A DNA stretch of 64,000 nt from Squalus acanthias (Eukaryota). Position 1 is the first letter of the stretch. Every line of letters begins with the position of its first letter. Made by a program: the position numbers and the translations under genes. The notes below the pieces were generated by a model. It saw only the letters and a list, made by a program, of their open reading frames with translations. It did not search any database and was not told the origin of the DNA. Of the stretch, positions 4,941 to 56,400 are shown in pieces. The stretch covers positions 130,326,001 through 130,390,000 of the forward strand of contig CM059431.1 of assembly GCA_030390025.1 (NCBI GenBank), written 5' to 3'.

Positions 4941-6753
4941 TTGGCTCTCACTGGAGCCACTTCAATTAGAGAAGATAATCAATCCCATCCACAATCAACT
5001 ACCTTACTCTAGTAAAAGTCTGTGGCTTTTAGAAGGCTTCAAAGGGACTTATATCAGATTTTCACTGTCGTGAGTTCTGCTGAGGCCTTTCAAGGGTAAG
5101 AAAGCAGGAATTTCAGCTCCAATATTCTTTTATCCTACGGCAGTCGATGTGCTATGTTGTTTGAAGGCCCATAAGGAATGCAAGAATGGATGCTGAGGAA
5201 CCAAGGTAATGCACTGTAGTTGTAGCTGAGGTCCTTAAGTTTCACAGTGATGTTAAGTCCTGAGGAAAGACACAATGCAGCACATGCTTCCATCAGGGTC
5301 TTCATTGAGCATACAATTGTCATGCAGAAGCAGTGATTCAGATGCCAGGACCGATCAGGGGTGTGCTACCGTCAAGCCCTGCCAAATTCTCAAAAGATAA
5401 TTATAGTCTGCTGTGTCTGCTCAAGTTTGCCCATTGAAGGATCAGACAGGAGAAGAAAGACAGCAGCAACCAGAGGCAGAAGACAACTTGAATTAGAAAA
5501 CAGAAAATTTGTCTGCACAGGCAACCAGCCATTCAACAAGATATCATCAGCTGGTATCTTAAAGATAGAGAGGATGAAGTTTCACTGGGATTCTCCTGCT
5601 CATCTGTCATAACTTCGGTGGAAGAGCTGCCTAATGCATTTTGCCATTTTTCTGGGGTTTTCACAGCTCTTACATTGACGTTACAGTGGACAATCAGGAG
5701 AACCCCCACAGAAATTCACCCCCAAATCTTTAAGTGTCTTATACTCCAATGCACAATAGGCATAGAGTCATAGAATAGTACAGCACAGAAGGAGGCTGTT
5801 TGGCCCATCGAGTCTGCGCCGGCTCTTTCGAAGAGCAATCCAGTTAGTCCCACTTGCCCGCTCTTTCCCCATATCCCAGCAATTTTTTGTCCTTTGAGTA
5901 TTTATCCAATTCCCTTTTGAAGGCTGCTATTGAATCTGTATCCACCACCCTATTAGGCAGTGCAATCCAAATCCTAACCACTCGTTGCGTAAAAAAGTTT
6001 TTCCTCATGTTGCCTCTGGTTCTTTTGCCAATCACCTGAAATCTGTGCCCTTTGGTTATTGATCCTTCAGCTATTGGAAACAGTTGCTCTTTATTTACTC
6101 TATCTAAACCTTTCATGATTTTAAACTCCTCTATCAAATTTCCTCTTGGTCTTCTCTGCTCGAAGGAGAACAACCCCAGCTTCTCTAGTCTATCCACATA
6201 ACTGTAATCCCTCATCTCTTCTGTACCCTCTCCATAGCCTTCATCTTCTTCCTAAAGTGTGGTGCCCAGAATTGGTGCACAAACACCCCGAGGTCACTCT
6301 ATTCTTGCACCCCCTTTAAAATTGTACCATTTAATTTGTATTGTCTTTCCTCATTCTTCCTACCAAAATGTATTGCCTCATACTTTTCTGCGTTGAATTT
6401 CATCTGCCATGTGTCCGCCCATTCCATCAGCCTGTCTATGTCTTCTTGAAGTCTATTACAATCTTCCTCACTGTTAACTACACTTACAAGTTTCATGTCA
6501 TCTGCAAATTTTGAAAGTGTGCCCTGTACCTCCAAGTCCATGTCATTAATGTATATCAAAAACAACAGTGGTCCTAGTACTGTACCCTGGGAGCTCCACT
6601 GTATACCTTCCTCCAGTTTGAAAAACAGCCATTCACCACAACTCTCTGTTTTCTATGATAGCAAAATACTGCGGATGCTGGAAATCCGAAATAACAACAG
6701 AAAACGCTGGAAAAACTCAGCAGGCCAGGCAGCATCCGTGGAGAGAGAAAGAG

Positions 6754-6790
6754 AGTTAACGTTTCAGGTCGATGACCTTTCATCAGAACT
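6754..6790 (-). ncRNA. Minimal type I hammerhead ribozyme-like motif (mirror copy)
   Basis: Exact reverse complement of 7048-7084. Confidence 0.72.
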
Positions 6791-7047
6791 GGGAAGAGCC
6801 GGAAATCAAATAGATTTAAGGCCAGAGTAAAGCTGGGAAAAGGGGGAGGGGATAAAGGAACAAAGGGGGAGATGAAGAGACAATAAGAGACATTCAGCCT
6901 TAATCTGTCACATTAACACCACCTCCAGCCTTGCATATCTCTTAATGTCTCTTATTGTCTCTTCATCTCCCCCTTTGTTCCTTTATCCCCTCCCCCTTTT
7001 CCCAGCTTTACTCTGGCCTTAAATCTATTTGATTTCCGGCTCTTCCC

Positions 7048-7084
7048 AGTTCTGATGAAAGGTCATCGACCTGAAACGTTAACT
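7048..7084 (+). ncRNA. Minimal type I hammerhead ribozyme-like motif
   Basis: AGTT-CTGATGA-A-AGGTC(ATC)GACCT-GAAAC-GTT-AACT: core boxes, 5-bp stem II, 4-bp stem I and palindromic ACGT stem III. Confidence 0.72.
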
Positions 7085-7272
7085 CTCTTTCTCTCTCCAC
7101 GGATGCTGCCTGGCCTGCTGAGTTTTTCCAGCGTTTTCTGTTGTTATCTCTGTTTTCTATCCCTTAGCCAATTTTGTATCCATGCTGTTACTGCCCCTTT
7201 TATCCCATGGGCTTCAGTTTTGATAACAAGCTTATTATGTGCTACCTTATCAAACGCCTTTTGAAAGTCCAT

Positions 7273-8137
7273 GGGGGAAAAATTCGGTTGCTTTGCGCCA
7301 CCTGTTAGCGCCCGAAGAGGGCGCTAATGGGGCGCAAAGCAACAAGCGCTCGGGCGCGGCGATGTTTGCGCCTCTCGCGAAATTGACCAGACATTTTGCG
7401 GCAGCGCTAAACACTACCACCACGATCTCCTGCGTCCGCAGATCATGACGTCAGTCGAGCATGCAATGCCCCGGTAGCGCCCAGGACCGGATATTGAGTG
7501 GCGCCCCCTGCCTGACCGCCTGCCGCAAGCGTTTTGCAGTCGGGAAGGGACTGGGGGAGCGCTATTTAAAGGCGACCGCTTGCTGCCTTTTTTTGTCGGC
7601 GACATTTTTGCACCACGCATTCTGAGAGAGAAAGACTTCTGGAGAGATTCAACACTGTGTGAAGGAGTTTTGGGTACTGAGCAGCACTTTGCAGGTTCAT
7701 TTTGATTTGACCTTCCTTGCATCGATTTAGAAGAGACTTTGGGGGCTGCACTCTCAGCACTTTCCCTGGGCCTCTCCATTGTTCTTTCCAGCAGATTTGA
7801 TGTACAGGTCTCTCCAGGCCGAGATTCAAGGCTGCAATGAGCAGGGTGTGGATGGAGAGCAAGATCGACTCCTTTAAGAACTGGCCGGCGCCAGTGTGTC
7901 TGTGATCCATTGCTGACTTACATCACATGAGCTTCACCAGTGCTCTGAGGTAGCGCCTCACTCCTTGGCGTTAGCGCCTTAAGAGAGGTGTGTAGCGCCT
8001 GATTTAGCGCTCCAATCACCTCCAAGGGCAATAGAAGCCAAGTTTGCAGTCGGAGGCGATAATTAGCGCCAGGCGCTAAACTTTGCGCCTGGCCGATAAT
8101 TGCGCCCCAAACGGGGCAATACCGAATTTCTCCCCCC
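7273..8137. mobile_element. Non-autonomous Harbinger-type element/MITE
   Basis: Termini gggggaaaaattcggt...accgaatttctcccccc, 3-bp duplication CAT, inserted in CR1; same family as 38066-38959. Confidence 0.88.
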
Positions 8138-8220
8138 CATATATACAACATCAACTTCACTGCCCTCATCCATCCTCTCTGTTACCTCATCAAAAACTCA
8201 ATCAAGTTAGTCAAACACGA

Positions 8221-8362
8221 AATAAAAACAGAAAATGCTGGAAATACTCAGCAGGTCAGGCAGCATCTGTGGAGAGAGAAACAGAGTTAATGTTTCAGCT
8301 TGTTGACCTTTCGTCAGAACAGATTTACAGATTTCCAGCATCCGCAGTATTTTGCTTTTGTA
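8221..8362 (-). mobile_element. Short PLE-type insertion with a degenerate hammerhead
   Basis: Similar to 6691-6790. Flanked by ttagtcaaacacga (8207-8220) and ttagtcacacacga (8363-8376); the last ~35 bp are an inverted copy of the element end. Confidence 0.75.
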
Positions 8363-9645
8363 TTAGTCACACACGATTTGCCCATAACAAATCCATGATG
8401 GCTCTCCTTTATTAGTCCATGCTTATTGTAGTGGCTGTTAATTTTCTCCCAGATTATTGTTTCTAAAAACTTCCCCACCACTGATGTTGCCAGGTTTATC
8501 CTTCTCCCCCTTTTTGAACAAGGGTGTAACATTTGCAATCCTTCAGTCCTCTGGCACCACCCCTGTATCTAAGGAGGATTGGAAGATTGTGGCCAGCACC
8601 TCCGCAATTCCTACCCTTACTTCCTCAGCAACCTAGGATGCATCCCATCTAGACTGGGTGACTTACCCACTTTAAGTACTGCCAGCCTTTCTAGTATCTC
8701 CTCTTTACCTATTTTTATCTCATCCAGTATCCCGACAACCTCCTCGTTTACCGTAGCTTTGGCATAGTCCTCATTCAGTACCTCAGTCATATCTTATGCC
8801 TCCACCAATAGATCTCCATTTTAGTCCCTAATCGGCCCTACCGCTCCTCTGACAACATTTTTATTGTTAATATGCCTATAAAAGACTTGGATTCTCTTTT
8901 ATGTTAGCCGCTAATCTATTTTCATACTGTTTCGTTGCCCCTATTATTTCCTTATTCACTTCTCCTCTGTACTTTTTATATTCAGCCTGATTCTCCCTTG
9001 AAGCTGACATCTGTCATACGCCCCCTTTTTCTGCTTCATCCTAACTCCTTCGTCATCCTGGAAGCTCTGGCTTTGGTTGCCCTCCCTTTCTCCCTTGTAC
9101 AAATGTACCTGGACTTACCCGAACCACCTCCTCTTTAAAAGCCGGCCATTGCTCCATTACGTTTCTGCCTGTCAGTCTATGACTCCAATTTACCCGGGCC
9201 AGAACCCTCCTCAATTGGATGAAATTAGCTCTCCTCCAGTTAAGTATTTTTATTCTAGATTGCTCCTTGTCCTTCTCCGTAACTAATCTAGACCTTATGG
9301 TGCTATGATCACTATTCTCAAGATGCTCCCCCACTATGACAATCTCCACTTGATTCCCCAGGACTAGATACAGCAATGCCTCCTTCCTCGTTAGGCAGGA
9401 AACATACTGATCAAGAAAATTCTCCTGCGCACACTTCAGAAATTCCTCCCCTTCTCTGCCCTTAACACAATCACTGCCCTATTTAATATTGGATTGGTAA
9501 ACTCTCCCATTATCACTACTCTATGGTTCTTGCACCTCTCAGTAATTTCCTTGCAAGTCTGCTCCTCTATCTACTTCCCACTATTTGGTGGCCTATAAAA
9601 TACACCATGCAGCGTAATAGCTCCTTTATTGTTTCTTAACTCCAT

Positions 9646-24387: not shown

Positions 24388-25281
24388 TCACTCGAATCGG
24401 AGTCTGATGAGGCGTTCACAGACAGCCGTGCCAAAGGGAGATTTGCTGCCTGCATCCTCCCTTCCTCCTCGTCCTCCTGGTCCTCCTCTCCCTCGTCCTC
24501 TTTCTGGGGTGGTCCCGCAATCCCTGCAGACCACCACGAAATGAGACACCCGCTCCGCCGGGTACTGGAGGGCTCCTCCCGAGCAGTCAAAGCAGTGGAA
24601 CCATTGCTTCAGCAGCCTGATGGTCTGCTCGATGATGTTCCTGGTGGCACCATGGCTCTCATTATATGAGTGCTGGGCACAAGTGTTGGGGTTGCAGAGG
24701 CGTACCTCAGACAGGTGCAGAGCCGTTAGCCCTTGTCTCCGAGCAGCCACCCTCAGATTTGACGTGATGGCTGGAAAATTGCTGGCACACCGGACTGACA
24801 CAGTATGAAGGCATCATGGCTGCTACCAGGATAGTGGGTATTGACCATCAGGATGCACACCAACTGCACACAACGACCTCCTAGATGCAGTGATGGATGG
24901 CGAACTGTGAGATGTTAGCTATGTCTCCTGCTGCAGACTGGAAGGATCCGTTGGCGAAGAAATTGAGGGCCACGGTGACCTTGAGGGCCACTGGGGAGCA
25001 GTGGTCGCCCTGCTCTGTGGCTGCAGATCTGGTTGCAGGAGGTGGCAGAGTTCTGTGACCACCTCCTTGGTGAAGCGGAGACTCCTAATACACTGCTCCT
25101 CGCTTAAGTGGATATAAGAGAAGTGCTCTCGGAAGACCCTAGGTGGGTAAGACCTCCTATTGAGAGCCCTCCTGGCCCCCCTCCTCCTCCCTCTGCACGC
25201 ACCTCCTCCTCTTTCTCGCTGCCTCTGCTCCCTCTTCCGAAGATGCTCGAGCGCGAGGGGGACTCCCAGTAGAGCCCCCAT
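24388..25281 (-). pseudogene. Harbinger (HARBI1-like DDE) transposase remnant
   Basis: LSEEQCIRSLRFTKEVVTELCHLL and YNESHGATRNIIEQTIRLLKQWFHCFDCSGGALQY are Harbinger transposase motifs; frameshifts and deletions present. Confidence 0.88.
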
Positions 25282-39800: not shown

Positions 39801-40031
39801 AGTGTCCTGGAAATCCACAAAGATAAGTGCCGAGGAGGCAAGTCCATTCTGCTAATTCTCATCATAGCATCTAACTGCCTCTTGAATGACAATAGAGTTG
39901 TTGCCACCATGAATGTACATGGAAGACTATTCCAGGTACTAGCGCTCTGAGTGAAAAAGTGTTTCTTGGCATCAGTTCTAAATCTACTTTTTACCAATTT
40001 GTACCCATGCCCCACAGTCATGGTGTAACTT

Positions 40032-40071
40032 TACCTGAAGAAGGGGCGATCGATAGCTCCGAAAGCTTGTA
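40032..40071 (+). ncRNA. Minimal hammerhead ribozyme-like motif
   Basis: TAC-CTGAAGA-A-GGGGC(GATCGATA)GCTCC-GAAAG-CTT-GTA: core boxes, stem II with one G-U pair, palindromic AGCT stem III, 3-bp stem I. Confidence 0.65.
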
Positions 40072-40117
40072 ATTTTAAATAAATCTGTTGGACTATAACC
40101 TGGTGTTGTGCGACTTC
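40032..40117 (+). mobile_element. 86-bp PLE-type insertion (second family) in an old CR1
   Basis: Perfect 14-bp duplication tcatggtgtaactt at 40018-40031 and 40118-40131; contains a hammerhead motif followed by AATAAA. Confidence 0.8.
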
Positions 40118-41545: not shown

Positions 41546-43832
41546 AAGCCAGAGATTTCGTGGTGGTCTGTTGCATCCTCCACAACTTGGCCATCATGAG
41601 GGCGCAGCCCTTGCCACCACAGGTTCCGCGACCATCTCCGGCAGCCTGAAAATCCCTGTTCAAGACGGGCTGTCCGTGAGCGCATCATTAGACTCCGGTT
41701 CCCCTGAATGAAACCTTAGACACCCATTGCTCAACACTTCCTCCCTCACCTTACAATCCCTCTGTCATGGAACATCACAGCTCCTCTTGGCCACAATGCT
41801 GAAATGAAAACCACCACAAAACAAACATTCCAAACATAATTTATAAATGATTAATTCCAAAACTACATAACAAAGTCAACTAATCACCCTTGTGCATTCC
41901 GTTAGTGCCTGTCTTTCATGTGCCTTTGCCTGTCCTAGTGCTCCTATGAAGTGCTACCCCAGTGGCTGCAGCATGGCTGGTGGAAGGCTGCTGACTTTAG
42001 TGGGTGAGACTGCAGATGTCCTTGCAGGACGACCTCGAGCAGCTCTGGGCCTAAAAGGCCCGGCTGTAGACTGCACCACCTCGGCATGGGAAGCAGCAGT
42101 CTGGGCTGGCTGGCTGACAGGCAACTGCAATGGCACTGGTGGAGTGGCAGTGCTGGAAGTACGAATACTGTCATCCTGAGAGAGGACAGCAGGTTCGTGC
42201 TCCACGGAGCCACTGCCACTCCCCCGGGGCAGCACCTCAGCAATCCTAGTAAGCTATTGGCGGACAGATTGCTGGACTGCTATGAGACCCTGCAAGCCCC
42301 TTTCCACACTTTTAAACACAGCCATGATGGCAGAAGTCTGAGCTTCCACTACAGCACTCAGACGTTGGGTCGCTTTCTCTTATGCTGCCTGCTAATGTAC
42401 CAAGCATTTCTGTGTGCATACCCATCGCCCTTCTTCTGAAGGCCGCCTCATCAAAGTCCTCATCTGACTGCTCTGCAGCAGAACTCGTGTGCGACCTCGC
42501 CCTCCGGGGAGCTAGCACCTGCACTACCCTTTCCCCCTGCCCTGGCTGTAGGCCACTCATGCCTGGTGACTCACCACGTGCAGATCCCACCACTATACTA
42601 CCCTCTAAACTTTGTGCAGTGCCATTTTCTGAGCTGGTACCTGCGAGTGTCAGATTAAGTGACGGTGTCTCTTCTTCTCTATCACTCTCCTCCTCTTGTT
42701 TTTCCTGTGCAGGCTGGGCTGGTTGGTGTTCTTGGGTAGCTGAAAGGAGAAAAACACAAGGGTAGGGTTGTGGTGAGGGGAAGGGGGGAAAAGCAAGAGG
42801 TGCTGCTTACACCATCAGCAGCTCGTAAGTGAGAAGAGATTGTGGGATGAGGGGGAAGTGGGATGTGATAAAAAAGGATTAAATATGAGCATACCATCAT
42901 CATCAATACTTTCAGCCTTGCCGATCACCACAGTCTCAGTGACGGCCCCTCCAATGATATCCAGCACTGTCTCCTCAAGCTGGCTCAGGTTCTGCTCCCC
43001 GTGCCTGCCCACTGCCTGTTAGCTGCTGCTGGTGCTGGTTATGAGCCACCTTGGCCTGCAAGAGAAAGGAAAGTGTGTCAGTGAGTGTGGTGCATGTGTT
43101 TGGCTGATGTGCTGGTCATGGTTGAATAGCTGGAATTGTGTGCAAGGTGTGAGATGTGGGTGTGAGGCTTGCAACAGTGGTAAGTGTGTGAGGGTGAGGT
43201 GAAGCTATGACTGTGAGGTATGAGTCGTGATTGATAGAAATTGTTGGTACGTTAGTGATGGGAATGTGGTGCATTGAGCAGTGTGTGAGGCTAGTGGTGC
43301 AGTTGGTGGGATATGGCATTGGAAGATGCATTCGGTGACCTTGACCACTTGTGTGTGGTCATTAAACTTCTTTCGGCACTGGACCCAGGTCTTGGAGGAA
43401 AGACTGGTGGAACTGACTGCTTCAGCAATCTGCTCCCACTTCCTTCTTACAGTCTGTTTGAAGGGCCTCCTGGCCCCCTGTGGGTAGAGCACCTCTCTCC
43501 TCCTTTCTACCCCCTGTACTTAGGCTACCAGTGCTGCATCCGAGAGCCGAAGTGCCCTTTTGAGCCATAGGTACCTTCCCCTTTCCTTAGCTGCACTAAC
43601 AACGAGGTGCTTGTTTCAGAACGTACCTTCCCTTTAAGAAGTGCAGACTGTGCTTCACACCTTTAAATAGAGATCACACTTCCCATGAAATTGGGCCCCC
43701 TGTTGAGTGCTGAGCCTACGAGCAGTGCATTCAGCGCTGGGCTCAGCGCTTCGATCATGTTAATTAGCAGGCAGCATGATTTTCATGTGCTGCCTGCATT
43801 ACTTTCAACAGGCCTTATCGAATTTAGCCCCA
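41546..43832. mobile_element. Harbinger transposon, left-truncated (transposase 3' end on +, Myb/SANT gene on -)
   Basis: VRRKWEQIAEAVSSTSLSSKTWVQCRKKFND (43205-43492) is a Myb/SANT-like signature; right terminus gaatttagcccc at ~43821-43832. Confidence 0.88.
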
Positions 43833-43834
43833 CA

Positions 43835-44900
43835 GTGTTCTATGTTGTAGAGGCTTTCGAAGGTCCAATTGGGATTTCACCACCTCAAAAAAAATCAATG
43901 GATGTTGGCCAGGCAGGATCTGTTCCTTTTGAAACCATGTTGGCTTCCACTTTTCATTCAGGTTTATTCCCAATGATCATTTCCGTTATTTTACCAGTTA
44001 TTGATGGGTTAGTACTTAAGCATCATTCTTGAAAATAGATACCATGTTGGATTTTTCTAATCTAGGAGAAATTGCATCCTTGTGATTTTTTAAAAATTAA
44101 TCTTTCTCTTATAATAAGTGAAAAATAACACTTATAATCTCTCTATGAATACTGAAATAGTTACTGTTGCATTTTCCTTCTGCAGCAGTGTGTTTGTAGT
44201 TCCCCTTTGCCTCTCTCATCCTCTCTTTTACATTTTCTGGAGGTTCTATATTTTTCCTAGTGATGTGCCACACCTTTCTCCCTGCAGACTTTTTGTAGAA
44301 ATTATTTTTTTCTTGACTATGTGTCTCTATTTTGGCTTTTAGGGCCATATTTCTTTAATCTATGTTTACTAGTCGTTGGTATGTACATAACCTGCACCCT
44401 CAGTGGGACGTGCTTCAAAGTTCCCATTTATCGTCAACTGAAGTTTACTTCAGTACTGCCCATCAGTCAAATTGCTTAAATTCTTCACTCATTCCCCTAA
44501 AGTTGGCCTTTTTAAAGTTGTGTGATGAGTATTGTTTATCCTAGATTGTGTCAAACTTAATCATGTTATAGAGACTATTGCTCAAGTGTGCCACTTTCCT
44601 AGCATGCTGTCAATTGTGATTACCAGGTTTGAGATGTGATACCTCTCTTGGCATTACTAATGCATTGGATCATAAATCAGTCATGCATTATATTCACCAG
44701 CTCAGATTCCAGATTGCTTGGCATTTCCAGTTAATGTCAGGTTGGTTAAAGTCCCTGATTAGTGTGACCTTTCTGTTTGCGCATACCTTCCTCATCTCTT
44801 CAGTAGAATAACCTGTCCTCTTGTTTTGACCAGATGAGCTATAGGACTTTTCAATATCTACCTGGTCTGTAATTTCCTCAAAAAGTCTCTTTGCACTAAA
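43835..44900 (-). mobile_element. Very old CR1 ORF2 remnant
   Basis: KVTLIRDFNQPDINW (GDFN-like) in ORF 44694-45179; aaaccatgttggc (antisense QHGF) near 43930. Confidence 0.6.
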
Positions 44901-45259
44901 TATTTCCAGCTGAACTATTTTGTTGGAAAGTTTTTCTGTACCGGGTTTAACTCCTTTTCTTCTCAGAAGCCCTTGACATTTCATGAACGTGTGTTGTTCC
45001 TGGATACTTTGCAGTTCTAGTATAAGAACATAAGAACATAAGAAATAGGAGCAGGAGTAGGCCAATCGGCCCCTCGAGCCTGCTCCGCCATTCAATAAGA
45101 TCATGGCTGATCTGATCCTAACCGCCAATCTACTATCTATCACAGAACCATCTCCTGCATCTAACAGAATTGCACACACGAAATAGGAGCAGAATCAGGC
45201 TACACAGTCCCTGGGCCCGCTCCACTACCCACAGGGCCATGACCGATCCGAACCTAGAC

Positions 45260-48211
45260 TCATGTCCAAATTCCTGCCCGCTCCCCGTAACCCTTAATGC
45301 CCTTTACTTCTAGGAAACTGTCTATTTCTGTTTTAAATTTAATTAATGTTGTAGCTTCTACAGCTTTTTGTGGCAGCATATTCCATGGACCTACCACCCT
45401 CTGAGTGAAGTAGTTCCTCCTCATCTCAGTTTTGAAAGAGCAGCCCCTTATTCTAAGACTATGTCCCCTAGTTCTCGTCTCACCCGTCATCGGGAACATC
45501 CTCCCCGCATCCACCCGATCCAACCCCTTCACAATCTTATATGTTTCAATAAGATCGCCTCTCATTCTTCTGAACTCCAATGAGTAGAGTCCCAATCTAC
45601 CCAACCTCTCCTCATATGACCACCCCCTCATCCCCGGGATTAACCGAGTGAACCTTTTTTGCACTGCCTCGAGAGCAAGGATGTCTTTCCTTAAGTAAGG
45701 ACACCAAAACTGTATGCAGTATTCCAGGTGCGGTCTCACCAATACCTTGTACAACTGAAGCAATACCTCCCTATTTTTATATTCTATCCCCCTAGCAATG
45801 AAAGCCAACATTCCATTTGCCTTCTTAATCACTTGCTGCACCTGCATACTAACCTTTTGAGTTTCGTGCACCAGGACCCCCAGATCCCTTTGCACTTCAG
45901 TACTCTCCAGTTTCTTGCCATTAAGATAATAAATTGCTCTAGGATTTTTCCTGCCAAAGTGCATCACCTCACACTTTCCAGTGTTGTATTCCATCTGCCA
46001 AATCTCTGCCCACTTACTTAGCCTGTCTATGTCCCCTTGCAGGTTTTTTATGTCCTCCTCATTCACTACTTTCCCTCCCATCTTTGTATCATCTGCAAAT
46101 TTTGATATGTTACACTTGGTCCCTTCCTCCAAATCGTTAATATAGATTGTGAAGAGTTGGGGACCCAGCACTGACCCCTGTGGAACACCACTAGTTACTG
46201 ATTGCCAGTCTGAGAATGAACCATTTATCCCAACTCTTTGCTTTCTGTTAGATAGCCAATCCTCTATCCATGCCAGAATATTACCCCCAATTCCGTGATT
46301 TTTTACCTTAAGCAATAATCTTTTGTGTGGCACCTTGTCAAATGCCTTTTGGAAGTCTAAATACACTACGTCCACTGGTTCCCCTTTATCCACTCTATAT
46401 GTTACTTCCTCAAAGAACTCCAGCAAATTTGTCAAACATGACTTCCCCTTCGTAAAACCATGCTGACTTTGTCCTATTAAATTATGATTATCCAAATGTC
46501 CTGTTACTGTTTCCTTAATAATGGACTCCAAAATTTTACCTACCACAGATGTTAGGCTAACCGGTCTATAGTTACCAGCCTTCTGTCTACTGCCCTTTTT
46601 AAATAAGGGTGTTACATTAGCAGTTTTCCAGTCTGCCGGGACCTTAGCGGAATCCAGGGAGTTTTGAAAAATTATTACCAATGCATCTACAATCCCTACC
46701 GCCACTTCCTTCAAGACTCTAGGATGTAAGCCGTCAGGTCCAGGTGATTTATCCGCCTTGAGTCCCATTATTTTACCGAGTACCACTTCCTTAGTGATTT
46801 TGATCGTGTTTAGCTCCTCTCCCCCTATAGCCCCCTGTTTGTCCAGTGTTGGGATATTCTTAGTGTCCTCTACTGTAAAGACTGATACAAAATATTCATT
46901 CAGTGTTTTTGCCATCTCCATATTTCCCACCATTAATTTCCCGGTCTCATCCTCTAAGGGACCAACATTTACTTTAGCCACCCTTTTTCTTTTTATATAA
47001 CTATAAAAACTCTTACTATCTGTTTTTATATTTTTTGCTAATTTACTTTCATAATCTATCTTCCCTTTCTTAATCAATCTTTTTGTTATTTTTTGCTGCC
47101 TTTTAAAGTTTTCCCAATCCTCTGTCCTCCCACTAGATTTCGCTACCTTATATGCCCTTGTTTTTAGTCGAATACTATCCTTAATTTCTTTACTTAGCCA
47201 CGGATGACTGTCCTTTCTTTTACACCCTTTTCTTTTCAGTGGAATATATTTTTTTTGGAAGTTGTAAAATAACTCCTTGAATGTACACCACTGATCATGT
47301 GTCGTCTTACCCTTTAATCTATTTTCCCAATCCACTCTACTCAATTCCGCTCGCATACCTTCATAGTCTCCTTTATTCAAGCTTAGCACGCTTGTTTGAG
47401 ATCCAACCTTCTCACCCTCTAATTGAATATGGAATTCAACCATGTTATGGTCACTCATTCCAAGGGGATCCTTTACTAGGACATTTTTAATTAATCCTGT
47501 CTCGTTACACAGGACCAGATCTAAGGTTGCTTGCCCCCTGGTCGGTTCAGTTACATACTGCTCAAGAAACCCATCCCTAATACACTCAATGAACTCATCC
47601 TCAAGGCAGCCCTGCCCCATTTGATTTGTCCAATTAATATGATAGTTAAAATCCCCCATAATTATAGATGTTCCCTTATTACATGCCTCAACTATTTCCT
47701 GATTGATACTCCGTCCAATAGAGTTGCAACTGTTCGGAGGCCTATAGACTACGCCCACTAATGTTTTTTTCCCCTTATTATTCCTTATCTCCACCCAAAC
47801 TGTTTCATTATCATGATTTTTTGACCCAATATCATTACTCTGTATTACAGTGATTCCTTCCTTTATTAACATAGCCACCCCACCTCCCCTTCCTTCCTGC
47901 CTGTCCTTCCTGATCGTTAAATAACCTGGTATGTTTAATTCCCAGGCATTGTCACCCTGCAGCCATGTTTCTGTAATGGCCACAATATCATAACCATATG
48001 TAGTTATTTGTGCCATTAACTCATCTATTTTGTTACGAATGCTACGTGCATTCAGATAGAGAACTTTCAAATATGCTTTGTGGCACTTAGTTCCTGCTTT
48101 TTCACTTTTTACCAGTTTACCTTTTACTCCACACACTCTGTCCCTTCCTGCCACGCTCTGATTTGTGATTCCCCTACTGCTACCTATGTCTATGACCCTC
48201 TCTGTTGTCAT
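45260..48211 (-). CDS. CR1 ORF2: APE-type endonuclease plus reverse transcriptase, 983 aa, uninterrupted
   Basis: Endonuclease motifs YLNARS, ITETW, VYRPP, GDFN, SDHN; RT motifs QHGF, YLDFQKAFD, SGVPQGSVLGP, KFADD. Confidence 0.96.
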   Translation of the reverse strand: MTTERVIDIGSSRGITNQSVAGRDRVCGVKGKLVKSEKAGTKCHKAYLKVLYLNARSIRNKIDELMAQITTYGYDIVAITETWLQGDNAWELNIPGYLTIRKDRQEGRGGGVAMLIKEGITVIQSNDIGSKNHDNETVWVEIRNNKGKKTLVGVVYRPPNSCNSIGRSINQEIVEACNKGTSIIMGDFNYHINWTNQMGQGCLEDEFIECIRDGFLEQYVTEPTRGQATLDLVLCNETGLIKNVLVKDPLGMSDHNMVEFHIQLEGEKVGSQTSVLSLNKGDYEGMRAELSRVDWENRLKGKTTHDQWCTFKELFYNFQKKYIPLKRKGCKRKDSHPWLSKEIKDSIRLKTRAYKVAKSSGRTEDWENFKRQQKITKRLIKKGKIDYESKLAKNIKTDSKSFYSYIKRKRVAKVNVGPLEDETGKLMVGNMEMAKTLNEYFVSVFTVEDTKNIPTLDKQGAIGGEELNTIKITKEVVLGKIMGLKADKSPGPDGLHPRVLKEVAVGIVDALVIIFQNSLDSAKVPADWKTANVTPLFKKGSRQKAGNYRPVSLTSVVGKILESIIKETVTGHLDNHNLIGQSQHGFTKGKSCLTNLLEFFEEVTYRVDKGEPVDVVYLDFQKAFDKVPHKRLLLKVKNHGIGGNILAWIEDWLSNRKQRVGINGSFSDWQSVTSGVPQGSVLGPQLFTIYINDLEEGTKCNISKFADDTKMGGKVVNEEDIKNLQGDIDRLSKWAEIWQMEYNTGKCEVMHFGRKNPRAIYYLNGKKLESTEVQRDLGVLVHETQKVSMQVQQVIKKANGMLAFIARGIEYKNREVLLQLYKVLVRPHLEYCIQFWCPYLRKDILALEAVQKRFTRLIPGMRGWSYEERLGRLGLYSLEFRRMRGDLIETYKIVKGLDRVDAGRMFPMTGETRTRGHSLRIRGCSFKTEMRRNYFTQRVVGPWNMLPQKAVEATTLIKFKTEIDSFLEVKGIKGYGERAGIWT

Positions 48212-48249
48212 TTTTATTTTTTGCTCTCTTGAAACCTCCCCCCCACTAA

Positions 48250-48855
48250 TTAGTTTAAAGCCCTCTCCACAGCCCTAGTTATTCGATTCGCCAGGACACT
48301 AGTCCCAGCACTGGCCAAGTGAAGTCCGTCCCAACGGAACAGCTCTCTCCTGCCCCAGTACTGGTGCCAGTGTCCCAAGAAGCAAAACCCATTTTTCCCA
48401 CACCAGTCTTTGAGCCACGCATTCAACTCCCTGATTTTATTTACCCTAGCCAAATTTGCTCGTGGCTCAGGTAGTAATCCAGAGATTATTACCCTCGAGG
48501 TTCTGCTTTTTAATTTGGCCCCTAGCTGCTCAAACTCCCTCAGCAGAACCTCTTTCCTTGTCCTATCTATGTCATTGGTACCAACATGGACCACGACAAC
48601 TGGATCCTCCCCCTCCCACTCCAAGTTTCTCTCCAGCCCACAGGAGATGTCCTTAACCCTGGCACCGGGCAGGCAACACAGCCTTCGGGACTCTCGCTCT
48701 TGGCTGCAAAGAACCCTATCTATCCCCCTAATGATACTATCCCCTACCACTACAACATTTCTTTTTACTCCCCCCACTTGAATGGCCCCCCTTACCACGG
48801 TGCTGTGGCCAGGTTGCTCATCCTCCCTGCAGTCCCCGCTCCTATCCACACAGGG
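48250..48855 (-). CDS. CR1 ORF1 C-terminal SGNH esterase domain (N-terminus lost)
   Basis: VVVGDSII, PGA, VHVGTND and DGLH blocks. The Zn-finger seen at 19090 is missing, so the track's start at 48885 lies in flanking DNA. Confidence 0.88.
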   Translation of the reverse strand, partial: PCVDRSGDCREDEQPGHSTVVRGAIQVGGVKRNVVVVGDSIIRGIDRVLCSQERESRRLCCLPGARVKDISCGLERNLEWEGEDPVVVVHVGTNDIDRTRKEVLLREFEQLGAKLKSRTSRVIISGLLPEPRANLARVNKIRELNAWLKDWCGKNGFCFLGHWHQYWGRRELFRWDGLHLASAGTSVLANRITRAVERALN

Positions 48856-49194
48856 AGTAAGAGCCACATCATACATACCACACATATCAAATGTCAGCTC
48901 CTGATCCCACTATTTCAATACTCCCAGCTGCTGTGCTACTCTGGGTTTTTTTCTTGTTTACCTGCACTGATATTGCAGATTTAGGCACATTCCTTCTTAG
49001 CACTCAATTCCCTCTCTCCTGTTGGGAGATGAAGCTCAACTGGGATTCCTCCCCACAGTCAAAATTACCTTGATGGCTTGAAATTTTGGAATCTTTAAAT
49101 AAAGACAAACTTACTTAATATCTAGATGAACAGAAAATAATTAGAAAGCAGCAAGATATAGACTATTAAAGTCGAGATGTAATGGTGAAACTAT

Positions 49195-53403: not shown

Positions 53404-56400
53404 GGATTAAAAATTCGGTTGTTTAACGCCACCCGTTACCAGCATATGGCGAAAAACGGCAGCCGCAGCTCTTCCACCAGCTGGTGGCGGGTCTCCCGGC
53501 GGCCGCCATTTTGCGAGGGGCAGCAGCGCTGCTGATAAACGTGATCACTGGAGGAATTGAAATTAACCAGATCATGCCATCAGTGAGTGTGCAAAGCTCA
53601 CTTGACGCCCGATCTATAGCATTTGATTTTGCTGTTTAACTTACCGGCATGCCTGAACAATGACAGGCAGAGCAAGGGTTCAACAGCAGGAAGGAGACTC
53701 CAGCAACGATATTTAAATGGATGATCAGCAATCAGTTGCACCTGACATGGTTATGCAGTTTGACTGGCTCTGTGCTACGTTCTGCAACTCCACCAGCTTT
53801 GCTGTGCCAGCAATCTTCCAGCCACCGCAGCAAACTCGAGGGTGACTGCTCGGAGACAAGGGCTATCCGCTCTCCACCTGGCTCATGACTCCCCTCCGCA
53901 ACCCCAACACTCATGCCCAGCACTCATATAATGAGAGCCAAACTTCCACCAGGAACATCATCCAGCAGACCATCGGGCTACTGAAACAATGTTTCGCTGC
54001 CTTGACCGCTCGGGAGGAGCCCTCCAGTACATGCCGGAGCGGGTGTCCCATTTCGTGGTGTCTGCTGCATGCTTTACAACTTGGACATCATGAGGGCGCA
54101 GCCTTTGCCACCAGGGATTGCGGCACCACCTCAGGAGGACGAGGAGGAAGAGGAGGAAAAGGACGAGGAGGGAGGGAGGAGGCAGGCACCCAATCGTCCT
54201 TCCAGATAGGCTCTCCGTGAACGGCTCATCAGACTCCGATTCCAATGAATGAAACACCAGATCCCTGTTGCTCACCACATCCCCATCATACCATCCTTGT
54301 CACACGTCATATCACAGCATCCTCCTGGGCACAAAGCTGAAATGAGAGACACCACAAATCATTCTAAACAAAATGAATAAATAGATCACAAATCAATTCA
54401 CACATATTTACATGAAAAATATTAACTAATCACCCTTGTGCAATCCCTTAGTGTCTGTCTTCCATGTGCCTTTTCCTAACCTAGTGCTCCTACGAAGTGC
54501 TCCCCCAGTGGCTGCAGCATAGCTGGTGGAAGGCTGCTGACTTTCCATGCAGGAGACTTCAGATGGCCTTGCAGGACGACCTCGAGCAGCTCTGACCCTT
54601 GAATGCCCGGCAGTAGACTGCACCACCTCGGCATGGGCGACAGCAGTCTGGGGTAGCTGGCTGATGGACAGCTTCAAGAGCAATGGTGGAGTGACAGAGG
54701 TGAGAACAGGAATACTGTCATCTGGACAGTGGACAGCAGGGTCCTGCTGCACTGACCCACTGCCACATGTCTGGGGCGGTGCCTTAGCATTCCTAGCAAC
54801 CTGTTGGAGCACAGACTGCTGGTCTGCTGCGACACCCTGAAAGCCCTGGTCGACAGTGGTAAACCCAGCCATGATGGCAGCAGTCCAAGCTTGGGTGGCT
54901 TCAAGCTGAGATTGCATGACAGCAATCTCAGCTTGGGTGGCATCATGCTGAGACTGCATGAGAGCATTCTGAGCTTCCGCTGAAGCACTAAGACATTGGG
55001 TCGCTTCCACTTGTGCTGCCATGGAAGCTGCAACATCGCCCATCATGCACCCCATCATGTCTGGGTCACCATGGTCTCTTTGGGAGTGTACCATCATTTC
55101 CAGGCTGGAAATCGTGGGCACAGAGTCCCGTGCAATGTTGGAAGCGGACTCCTCCATGCTCCTTGACACTGCCGAGAGGCTCTCTGGCAGGCTTGCCATT
55201 GCGCCCATCAATTTGGTGTGCTTGCCCATCACCCTTCTTCTGAAGGCCTCCCCATAACCCTGCAAATTTCTGGGTCCTGTGCAGCAGAGCTCGCCCTCTG
55301 GGGAGCTAGCCCCCAAGCTACCCTTTCCCCCGGCCTTGCTGCAGCCCACTCGTGCCCGGTACCTCACCCTGTGGAGATCCCGCTTCTACACTAGCCTCTA
55401 AGTGAGAGATGCAGTGAGGTGGTGTCTTCTGCCTCCTCCTCTTCTCCCCCCTCGCTCTCTGCGATGACATCGGAGACAGGCTGCTTGGGTGTTTGTTGAT
55501 TATCTGAAAGCACAAATTCTCAAGAGTCGGGTTATGGTGAGGGGAGGTGGGGGTGACGGGGAAGTCAGAAATGCATGCATACAGCATGAGTAGCTTGAAA
55601 GTGAGAAAAGATTGCAGGCTGAGGGGGAAGTGAAATGTGAAAAGAAGGATTAGGAACGAGCATACCAAGGGGTTGAACCTCGCCGGTTGCCACGGCCTCT
55701 ACCACTTGCCACCCAATTAGCTGGAGTACTCGCTCCTCCAGCTGGCTGAAGTGCTGAGTGTCCACCTGGAGTCCGCCTGTCTGCTGCTGCTCCGGGCAAT
55801 TATGTGCCAGCTTGGCCTGCAAGAGAAAGAGAAGTTTGTGAGTGAGTGTGATGCAATGTGTTTGGTGATGTGGTTGCCATAGTTGAATAGCTGTCAGTGT
55901 GTACATGGCGTGAGACGTGGGTGTGAGTGTTGCAGCAGTGGTAAGGTTGTGAGGGTGAAGTGAAGTTATGATTCTGAGGTGTGAGTGGTGAAAGGTAGAG
56001 ATTGTTAGTTGGTGAGTGCTGGGGGTGTGGTGCATTGAGTAGTGTGTGAGGCTTGTGGTGCAGATGGTGGTATGTGGCATTTGCTAAAACCTTCACTCAC
56101 CTTGGCCACCCGTGTGAGCTCCACAGTACTCGGCGTTACATGGTCCGCTATCTCCTGCCACATGGTACAGGATGTTAGGGCGAGGGCTTCCTTGCCACTT
56201 TGCGGATAGAGGACAGCCTCCTCTCCATGGCCACTACGAGTGCCTCCAGATCTTCATCGGAGAACCTCCTGGCTCTCTCCCTGCTACGACAATCTGCCAT
56301 GTGTGCACAACTCTTGCTTGTCCTTGAGCTTCTCCTTCTGGTGGTTGGGGCAGCTGCAAAACCAACTGCCCTGACAATGAGGTGCTGTAGCATCAATGCA

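Follow-up and report, generated by a model that had tools for sequence, protein, structure and literature searches.

A very young Penelope-like insertion with two head-to-head, ribozyme-bearing ends in Squalus acanthias, likely primed from both nicked target strands

The window analysed here is the whole 64,000-nucleotide stretch of Squalus acanthias DNA (assembly GCA_030390025.1, contig CM059431.1, positions 130,326,001 to 130,390,000), in which an old LINE is interrupted by a compact insertion, bounded by direct repeats, whose two halves lie head to head. The features of this locus, in window coordinates, are the following:

6302..6652, minus strand: old LINE-type reverse-transcriptase frame of the host (RVT_1, E=1.6e-10), which resumes after 7147
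6643..6656, plus strand: left copy of the target site duplication (TSD), 14 bp, or 13 bp with 7147 counted as element
6657..6690, minus strand: 34-nt Penelope-like 'tail' (+94 to +127 of the family), which the right arm lacks
6691..6894, minus strand: left arm, -110 to +93 of the family, with its sense direction on this strand
6754..6790, minus strand: the tailed arm's minimal type I hammerhead motif, from a descriptor scan
6891..6894, without strand: arm junction, a 4-nt microhomology (CATT)
6895..6943, plus strand: 49-nt 'spacer', family sequence that extends the right arm upstream and not a separate loop
6944..7147, plus strand: right arm, which has no tail and stops at +93 (or +92)
7048..7084, plus strand: minimal type I hammerhead motif with a cut predicted between 7080 and 7081
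7147..7160, plus strand: right copy of the TSD, direct repeat of 6643-6656

The arms at 6691-6894 and 6944-7147 are exact reverse complements at 204 of 204 positions, 49 nt lie between them (6895-6943), and TCTCTGTTTTCTAT stands as a direct repeat at both 6643-6656 and 7147-7160. Comparison thus confirms what a preliminary description had read by eye, namely two mismatch-free arms, a 49-bp spacer, a target duplication of 13-14 bp and a motif on each strand; the size of the duplication is given as 13 or 14 bp because base 7147 fits element and duplication alike. Four uninterrupted paralogues of the host LINE (L053, L048, L057 and L107) have the duplicated stretch once only, their flank matches overlapping over it by about 12 bases, and the repeat is therefore a true target duplication. 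When the A of the ATG inside CUGAUGA (7055) is numbered +1 and the preceding base 0, the minus-strand arm spans family positions -110 to +127, and the plus-strand arm with the spacer spans -163 to +93. Since spacer and tail both map to the family, the spacer belongs to the tail-less arm and 6657-6690 is a tail. The body of the insertion measures 491 bp and holds no ORF, in keeping with its earlier description as non-coding.

Paralogues of the host LINE are 64-86% identical. None of 291 stop-to-stop frames in the 64-kb window (at least 65 aa, low-complexity-filtered; shorter exons would escape) matched a clear host-gene family; their matches were confined to transposon domains and, below threshold, a single deaminase. 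There is also no sign of a target preference among the sampled loci, where no other family 3' end lies less than 186 bases from a paralogue of the host stretch. Reads joining 6642 to 7147, found when four of the 21 sequencing runs listed (best share 0.47) were compared at 90% likeness, were rejected as an empty allele; they represent empty sites of related LINE copies and not this locus. RNA-type runs had shares of 0.07-0.24, which are no sign of expression.

Several other repeats occupy the window. At 7273-8136 is a GC-rich repeat with internal palindromes and 16-bp inverted ends (7273-7288 and 8121-8136), present at high copy in the reads, that resembles a non-autonomous DNA transposon. A related subfamily has left an older insertion (8207-8380; 88% to the left arm), seemingly in the same host LINE, which comprises a tail-less arm (8219-8320, minus strand) and a tail-only arm (8325-8356, plus strand) and so has a one-tail asymmetry too; it is bounded by the near-identical repeats TTAGTCAAACACGA and TTAGTCACACACGA, and its hammerhead has decayed. 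On the minus strand, an apparently young LINE (44697-48909) has an open endonuclease-RT frame of 1004 codons (45263-48274) and an upstream GDSL-esterase frame (48253-48909), and the DDE_Tnp_4 and Myb/SANT-like fragments at 24391-24813, 43208-43519 and 53846-54217 are of the kind found in Harbinger-type DNA transposons.

The insertion belongs to an abundant family: a 43-mer of the ribozyme has 2,260 exact matches in the 3.7-Gb genome (control, 0). One full-length copy, L031, consists of 833-bp direct pLTRs flanking a stop-free frame of 1017 codons that opens inside the upstream pLTR, which thereby overlaps the ORF start. Its protein carries the motifs DKG and YIDD, a CX4CxxC linker (CTRRRCNTC, just after residue 880), VYCxxCxxC..YIG and downstream histidines; its first Atlas matches are RT/GIY-YIG clusters (0.96-0.97), Pfam detects RVT_1 and GIY-YIG weakly, at scores below cut-off, and a PDB sequence search returned 0 matches. 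The left arm with its tail (238 nt) and the right arm with spacer and microhomology (257 nt) each show 0 differences from the downstream pLTR of L031, for which reason the insertion is very young, as had been supposed. The suggested Penelope-like origin and linkage to an RT and GIY-YIG ORF also hold, the arms being the pLTR of an element whose ORF encodes both. By its sequence features, the family is an EN+ Penelope-like element (PLE), with a single ORF for RT and C-terminal GIY-YIG, partial-tandem pLTRs, a tail and a TSD, and its linker would mark it as Neptune or Nematis, to which a CX2-5CxxC linker between RT and EN is common according to the available text of PMC8557442. In the accessible part of a 2026 preprint, the vertebrates sampled had Neptune and Poseidon only, and a search of literature outside subscription journals found none combining Neptune, Penelope, shark and retrotransposon. 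Some copies (L068, L069 and L070 at C1 6.99-7.13 Mb, and L064) lie inside larger tandem repeats with identical flanks and inflate copy counts, and two others (L133 and L136) are inserted at the same spot of the family's own RT-coding sequence (flank GGGTCCTAGCTATGCC...).

The motif on each strand had been described as a minimal type I hammerhead with a palindromic helix III, and its parts agree: stem I AGUU/AACU, CUGAUGA, an extra A, stem II AGGUC/GACCU, GAAA, the palindromic ACGU and a GUU ending at 7080, so that the core CUGANGA, GAAA and UH are present together with helices I and II, and the motif predicts a cut at the position already proposed, after the GUU at 7080. The ATG at 7055-7057 lies inside CUGAUGA, in frame with the family ORF and 26 nt before the predicted cut. 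A descriptor scan gave 167 matches in 717 kb of loci chosen for family content, against 0, 0 and 0 in three shuffles. Rfam, the check that had been suggested, failed to recognize the motif: at gathering score the window gave 0 hammerhead matches, and relaxing the cut-off to E<=10 over 6500-8800 gave 37 matches that included none, most of them being generic hairpin models lying on the palindrome. The miRNA and snoRNA matches, which fall below gathering score, were set aside as reflections of the long hairpin. A second repeat family, which carries a hammerhead of the same 37-nt plan (TCAC/GTGA, GGAGC/GCTCC, AGCT palindrome), occurs at about 40029-40076 (plus strand) in the window and at L066:2221-2257 and L095:2328-2364.

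Among 163 copies of the motif, four positions have at least eight changes, namely N7, the first stem II pair (A-U to G-U), loop II and H17, and hammerheads tolerate variation at N7, loop II and H17 as well as a wobble in the first stem II pair. The change at N7 removes the ATG in 25 of the 163 copies, so the ATG inside CUGAUGA may not be a real start. Seven of nine stem pairs change on both sides (0 of 500 shuffles), all of them in two related rows of the second family and hence as one event; within the main family, stem changes are confined to A-U to G-U. At pair 10.1-11.1, young copies have A-U, older copies G-U and the second family G-C; the main family thus departs from the conserved G10.1-C11.1. 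The ribozyme fold is not the lowest in energy, either as monomer (-5.9 vs. -7.3; P=0.03) or as dimer (-9.7 vs. -19.3). Because of this energy deficit, the A-U at 10.1-11.1 and the GUU triplet, the ribozyme is predicted to cut poorly and only as a dimer or with protein help. The hammerheads are probably passengers of the pLTR.

We took a chromosome-order sample, the first 100 matches listed (chromosome C1), which collapse to 83 loci, 82 of them examined. The anchored copy has an inverted partner at 20 of these 82 loci, and one further locus (L131) has an inverted bystander; roughly scaled up, this would mean several hundred inverted insertions in the genome. The 3' ends are bimodal, at about +86 to +98 and +125 to +139, with one at +148, and all 18 inverted pairs of the chromosome-order sample in which both 3' ends are intact combine one tailed with one tail-less arm. 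From the lone arms, of which 25 have the tail and 34 do not, independent choice would give 49% mixed pairs (P=2.5e-6). The 18 pairs include L131 and L117 (110-bp filler; added by hand). Outside the count are L101, L043 and L138, whose second arm stops short and whose tail is on one arm only, the satellite duplicates of one insertion at L068-L070, and three extra lone arms in pair loci. In a score-selected set together with the window, 8 of 9 pairs are mixed; the exception, L032, is tailed on both arms, lacks a TSD and has its flank mirrored over about 120 bp, and by these features looks like a later duplication. A TSD of 12-17 bp, scored by script, is present in 17 of 17 inverted pairs, and one of 8-17 bp in 44 of 59 lone arms. 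At L061, two inverted insertions lie about 110 bp from each other, and both have a 12-bp TSD and a single tailed arm.

The 5' ends are less regular. In 14 of the 18 pairs it is the tail-less arm that extends further 5' (p=0.03; 21 of 26 with the selected set added), and where the tailed arm is the longer (4/18), it is so by <=12 nt in two cases. Four of the 18 pairs have arms ending <=15 nt apart (permutation p=0.006, with the threshold picked after looking); within 100 nt, p=0.17. Twelve of 104 arms, at L043, L044, L067, L068, L081, L085, L090, L113, L131, L134, L137 and L145, have 5' ends at -527 to -562, a range picked after looking that falls around the endonuclease YIG codons and possibly corresponds to an RNA 5' end, and hence a transcription start, or to an RT stall. 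At the junctions themselves, 11 of 20 show exact microhomology of 1-4 nt and 9 of 20 gave gaps, which the junction walker could not distinguish from nearby substitutions.

To an assembly artefact from a chimeric palindromic read we give almost no credence. It would predict perfect arms, and no spanning read was seen, the read matches having been swamped by paralogues; however, the flanks are unmirrored, a TSD copy stands on either side, only one arm has a tail, and the host LINE resumes in register. Some 20 further loci are also built in this way, around junctions that differ.

Read-through transcription was computed to yield, from either strand, a single long duplex (-417 kcal/mol) in which stem II has a pairing probability of ~5e-18, as anticipated by the preliminary description, which had foreseen a duplex of about 200 bp masking the ribozyme. 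In such an RNA the antisense arm is made first, whichever strand is transcribed, and the ribozyme is predicted to be fully masked; because the two ribozymes lie on opposite strands, no dimer can form within one transcript. Transcription of the insertion's own is doubtful, since all family sequence upstream of -163 is missing and the Drosophila Penelope promoter lies inside the pLTR, by the portion of PMC2377424 available, and we infer that the insertion is promoter-poor. The predicted perfect duplex of ~200 bp in read-through RNA would suit a self-propagating palindromic mini-element, or a dsRNA or ribozyme switch selected on a host transcript. Both are very improbable, given that no second copy of the 6891-6894 junction exists among at least 84 matches, the closest of those listed (C25) joining -110 to -188 against -110 to -163 here, that every inverted locus has a junction of its own, that zero divergence would have left no time for co-option, and that the 291 frames contain no clear host-gene family. 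A retrozyme or MITE-like mobile unit would be dispersed or arrayed in same-strand tandem, whereas the ribozymes here are on opposite strands and the junction is unique among the matches listed. The locus most likely does nothing. Where the several hundred perfect inverted repeats of 100-700 bp expected in the genome lie within transcripts, they could feed dsRNA pathways.

In our view the locus is a 5'-truncated and very recent insertion of an abundant PLE that bears an endonuclease; its two head-to-head, ribozyme-bearing ends were likely primed from both nicked target strands. A staggered double cut of the old LINE target is implied by the observed 13-14-bp duplication. Nick 1 would have primed copying at family position +127, giving the tailed arm, and nick 2 at +93, giving the tail-less arm; both copies would have aborted early, at -110 and -163, before joining at the 4-nt microhomology observed at the junction. 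The weakest step, possible rather than probable, is that the same repeat of one RNA was read for both arms by a two-subunit enzyme, with the tail-less copy leading.

An alternative close to published views is self-priming, in which a cDNA hairpin forms first and the endonuclease later trims the tail of one arm at integration. In the available text, published authors favour either self-priming, which Arkhipova 2013 (PMC3846280) deduced from palindromes at inverted junctions, or endonuclease resolution, to which Craig 2021 (PMC8557442) ascribes the tail. Self-priming with trimming would account for allele sharing and for the one-sided tail. Without trimming it is excluded here, and a simple DNA fold-back, the route implied when the insertion was first called 'fold-back', is impossible, because the longer arm, which would be the first strand, lacks the tail of the shorter arm, whose tail cannot derive from it. 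With trimming it would need the loss of ~230 nt at L043, where a TSD is present and each arm has sequence absent from the other; moreover, lone copies share the two 3' ends, these ends are RT start sites in vitro (PMC11167929, as accessible), and the junction here is a 4-nt microhomology with no palindrome. We regard this alternative as improbable: the one-tail pairing (18/18), the longer tail-less arms (14/18) and the 2% allele discordance described below favour two-ended priming over self-priming.

Support for two-ended priming also comes from the Anolis Poseidon protein PAc, which is predicted to be dimeric and in vitro nicks and extends both target strands, starting reverse transcription at two internal sites that bound the tail; the accessible text reports no start-site difference between strands and no discussion of inverted repeats (PMC11167929). 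This in vitro support would have to carry over from a Poseidon to a shark family that has a Neptune/Nematis linker. Across 21 pairs from both sets, the arms disagree at 6 of 268 family-polymorphic cells (~2%), compared with 15.7% in permuted pairs (lowest of 2000: 7.9%), although this sharing, which is uncorrected for age, would also arise if source loci were active singly, one after another. The disagreements fall in 4 of the 21 pairs (L033, L067, L118 and L141), which could instead point to priming at both ends on two templates, either the upstream and downstream pLTRs of one tandem RNA or two RNAs in one complex. That version, which we think somewhat unlikely, also draws on the 12 of 104 arms ending at -527 to -562, a possible RNA 5' end, and on the long pairs L085, L131, L134 and L034, whose tailed arm ends in that range as expected from an upstream pLTR; however, it does not by itself explain the strict pairing of tail with no tail or the near-equal 5' ends, both arms of L035 and L136 extend far beyond -560, and 6 of the 12 arms in the cluster are tail-less, which a stall site fits equally.

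Tentatively, we hypothesize that the inverted repeats and one-sided tails of PLEs arise in one event, in which a dimeric RT-endonuclease cuts the strands 13-15 bp apart, always assigns one nick to the upstream and the other to the downstream start site, and copies the same stretch of a single RNA twice. If this is true, the ~2,000 near-identical young copies would obey a one-tail rule strictly, with the tail-less arm in the lead and alleles shared between arms. The available parts of PMC11167929, PMC8557442 and PMC3846280 describe the origin of PLE inverted repeats and tails as an open question, and neither a strict one-tail rule nor two-ended priming for PLEs appears in any title or abstract opening found outside subscription journals. 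Among retrotransposons, PLEs are the nearest kin of telomerase. This one locus is of little consequence, with a modest value as mechanism data.

The inverted-pLTR layout with a one-sided tail is already published, and what we describe is an ordinary locus of a new, active-looking family. Inverted-pLTR EN+ PLEs such as Pen2a_Av of Adineta vaga (PMC3846280; Fig. 2 of PMC8557442; both as available) likewise carry a 5'-truncated inverted copy at the 5' end, a 30-40-bp tail at one end, a TSD and a pLTR over the ORF start. The shark insertion differs from these in having its body cut to 491 bp with no ORF and in its TSD of 13-14 bp, compared with 8-10 bp in Adineta, and where the accessible passages of the same sources call the tail 'optional' or 'often' one-sided, it is one-sided in 18 of 18 shark pairs.

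The hammerheads, too, have counterparts. Those of metazoan PLEs described in the accessible text of PMC4209133 are also minimal type I motifs with a short helix I, an unpaired base between 9 and 10.1 and a palindromic 15.2-16.2 without a loop, and dual motifs on opposite strands about 100-700 bp apart, with low activity even as dimers, have been reported there; the shark motif departs from them in a helix II of 5 bp, an A-U in place of the conserved G-C at 10.1-11.1 and the triplet GUU. The hammerhead of PAc, the Poseidon of Anolis carolinensis, cuts only with protein, 26 nt after the ATG, and is dispensable for insertion in vitro (PMC11167929, available part). PAc thus resembles the shark family in an ATG inside the ribozyme with a cut 26 nt downstream (predicted in the shark) and in two 3' ends bounding the tail, the shark ends lying at about +93 and +127-130 and the PAc starts mainly at +111 to +118 (PMC11167929, same part). 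The CX4CxxC linker of the Neptune/Nematis kind also sets the shark family apart from PAc.

The closest parallel outside PLEs is the twin priming of LINE-1, in which both target nicks prime, the head-to-head halves are joined at microhomology and the TSD is kept. The shark insertion shares the head-to-head copies, the microhomology join and the TSD, and would share the priming from two nicks; however, LINE-1 halves copy non-overlapping parts of the RNA, whereas the shark arms overlap almost wholly and so form an inverted repeat.
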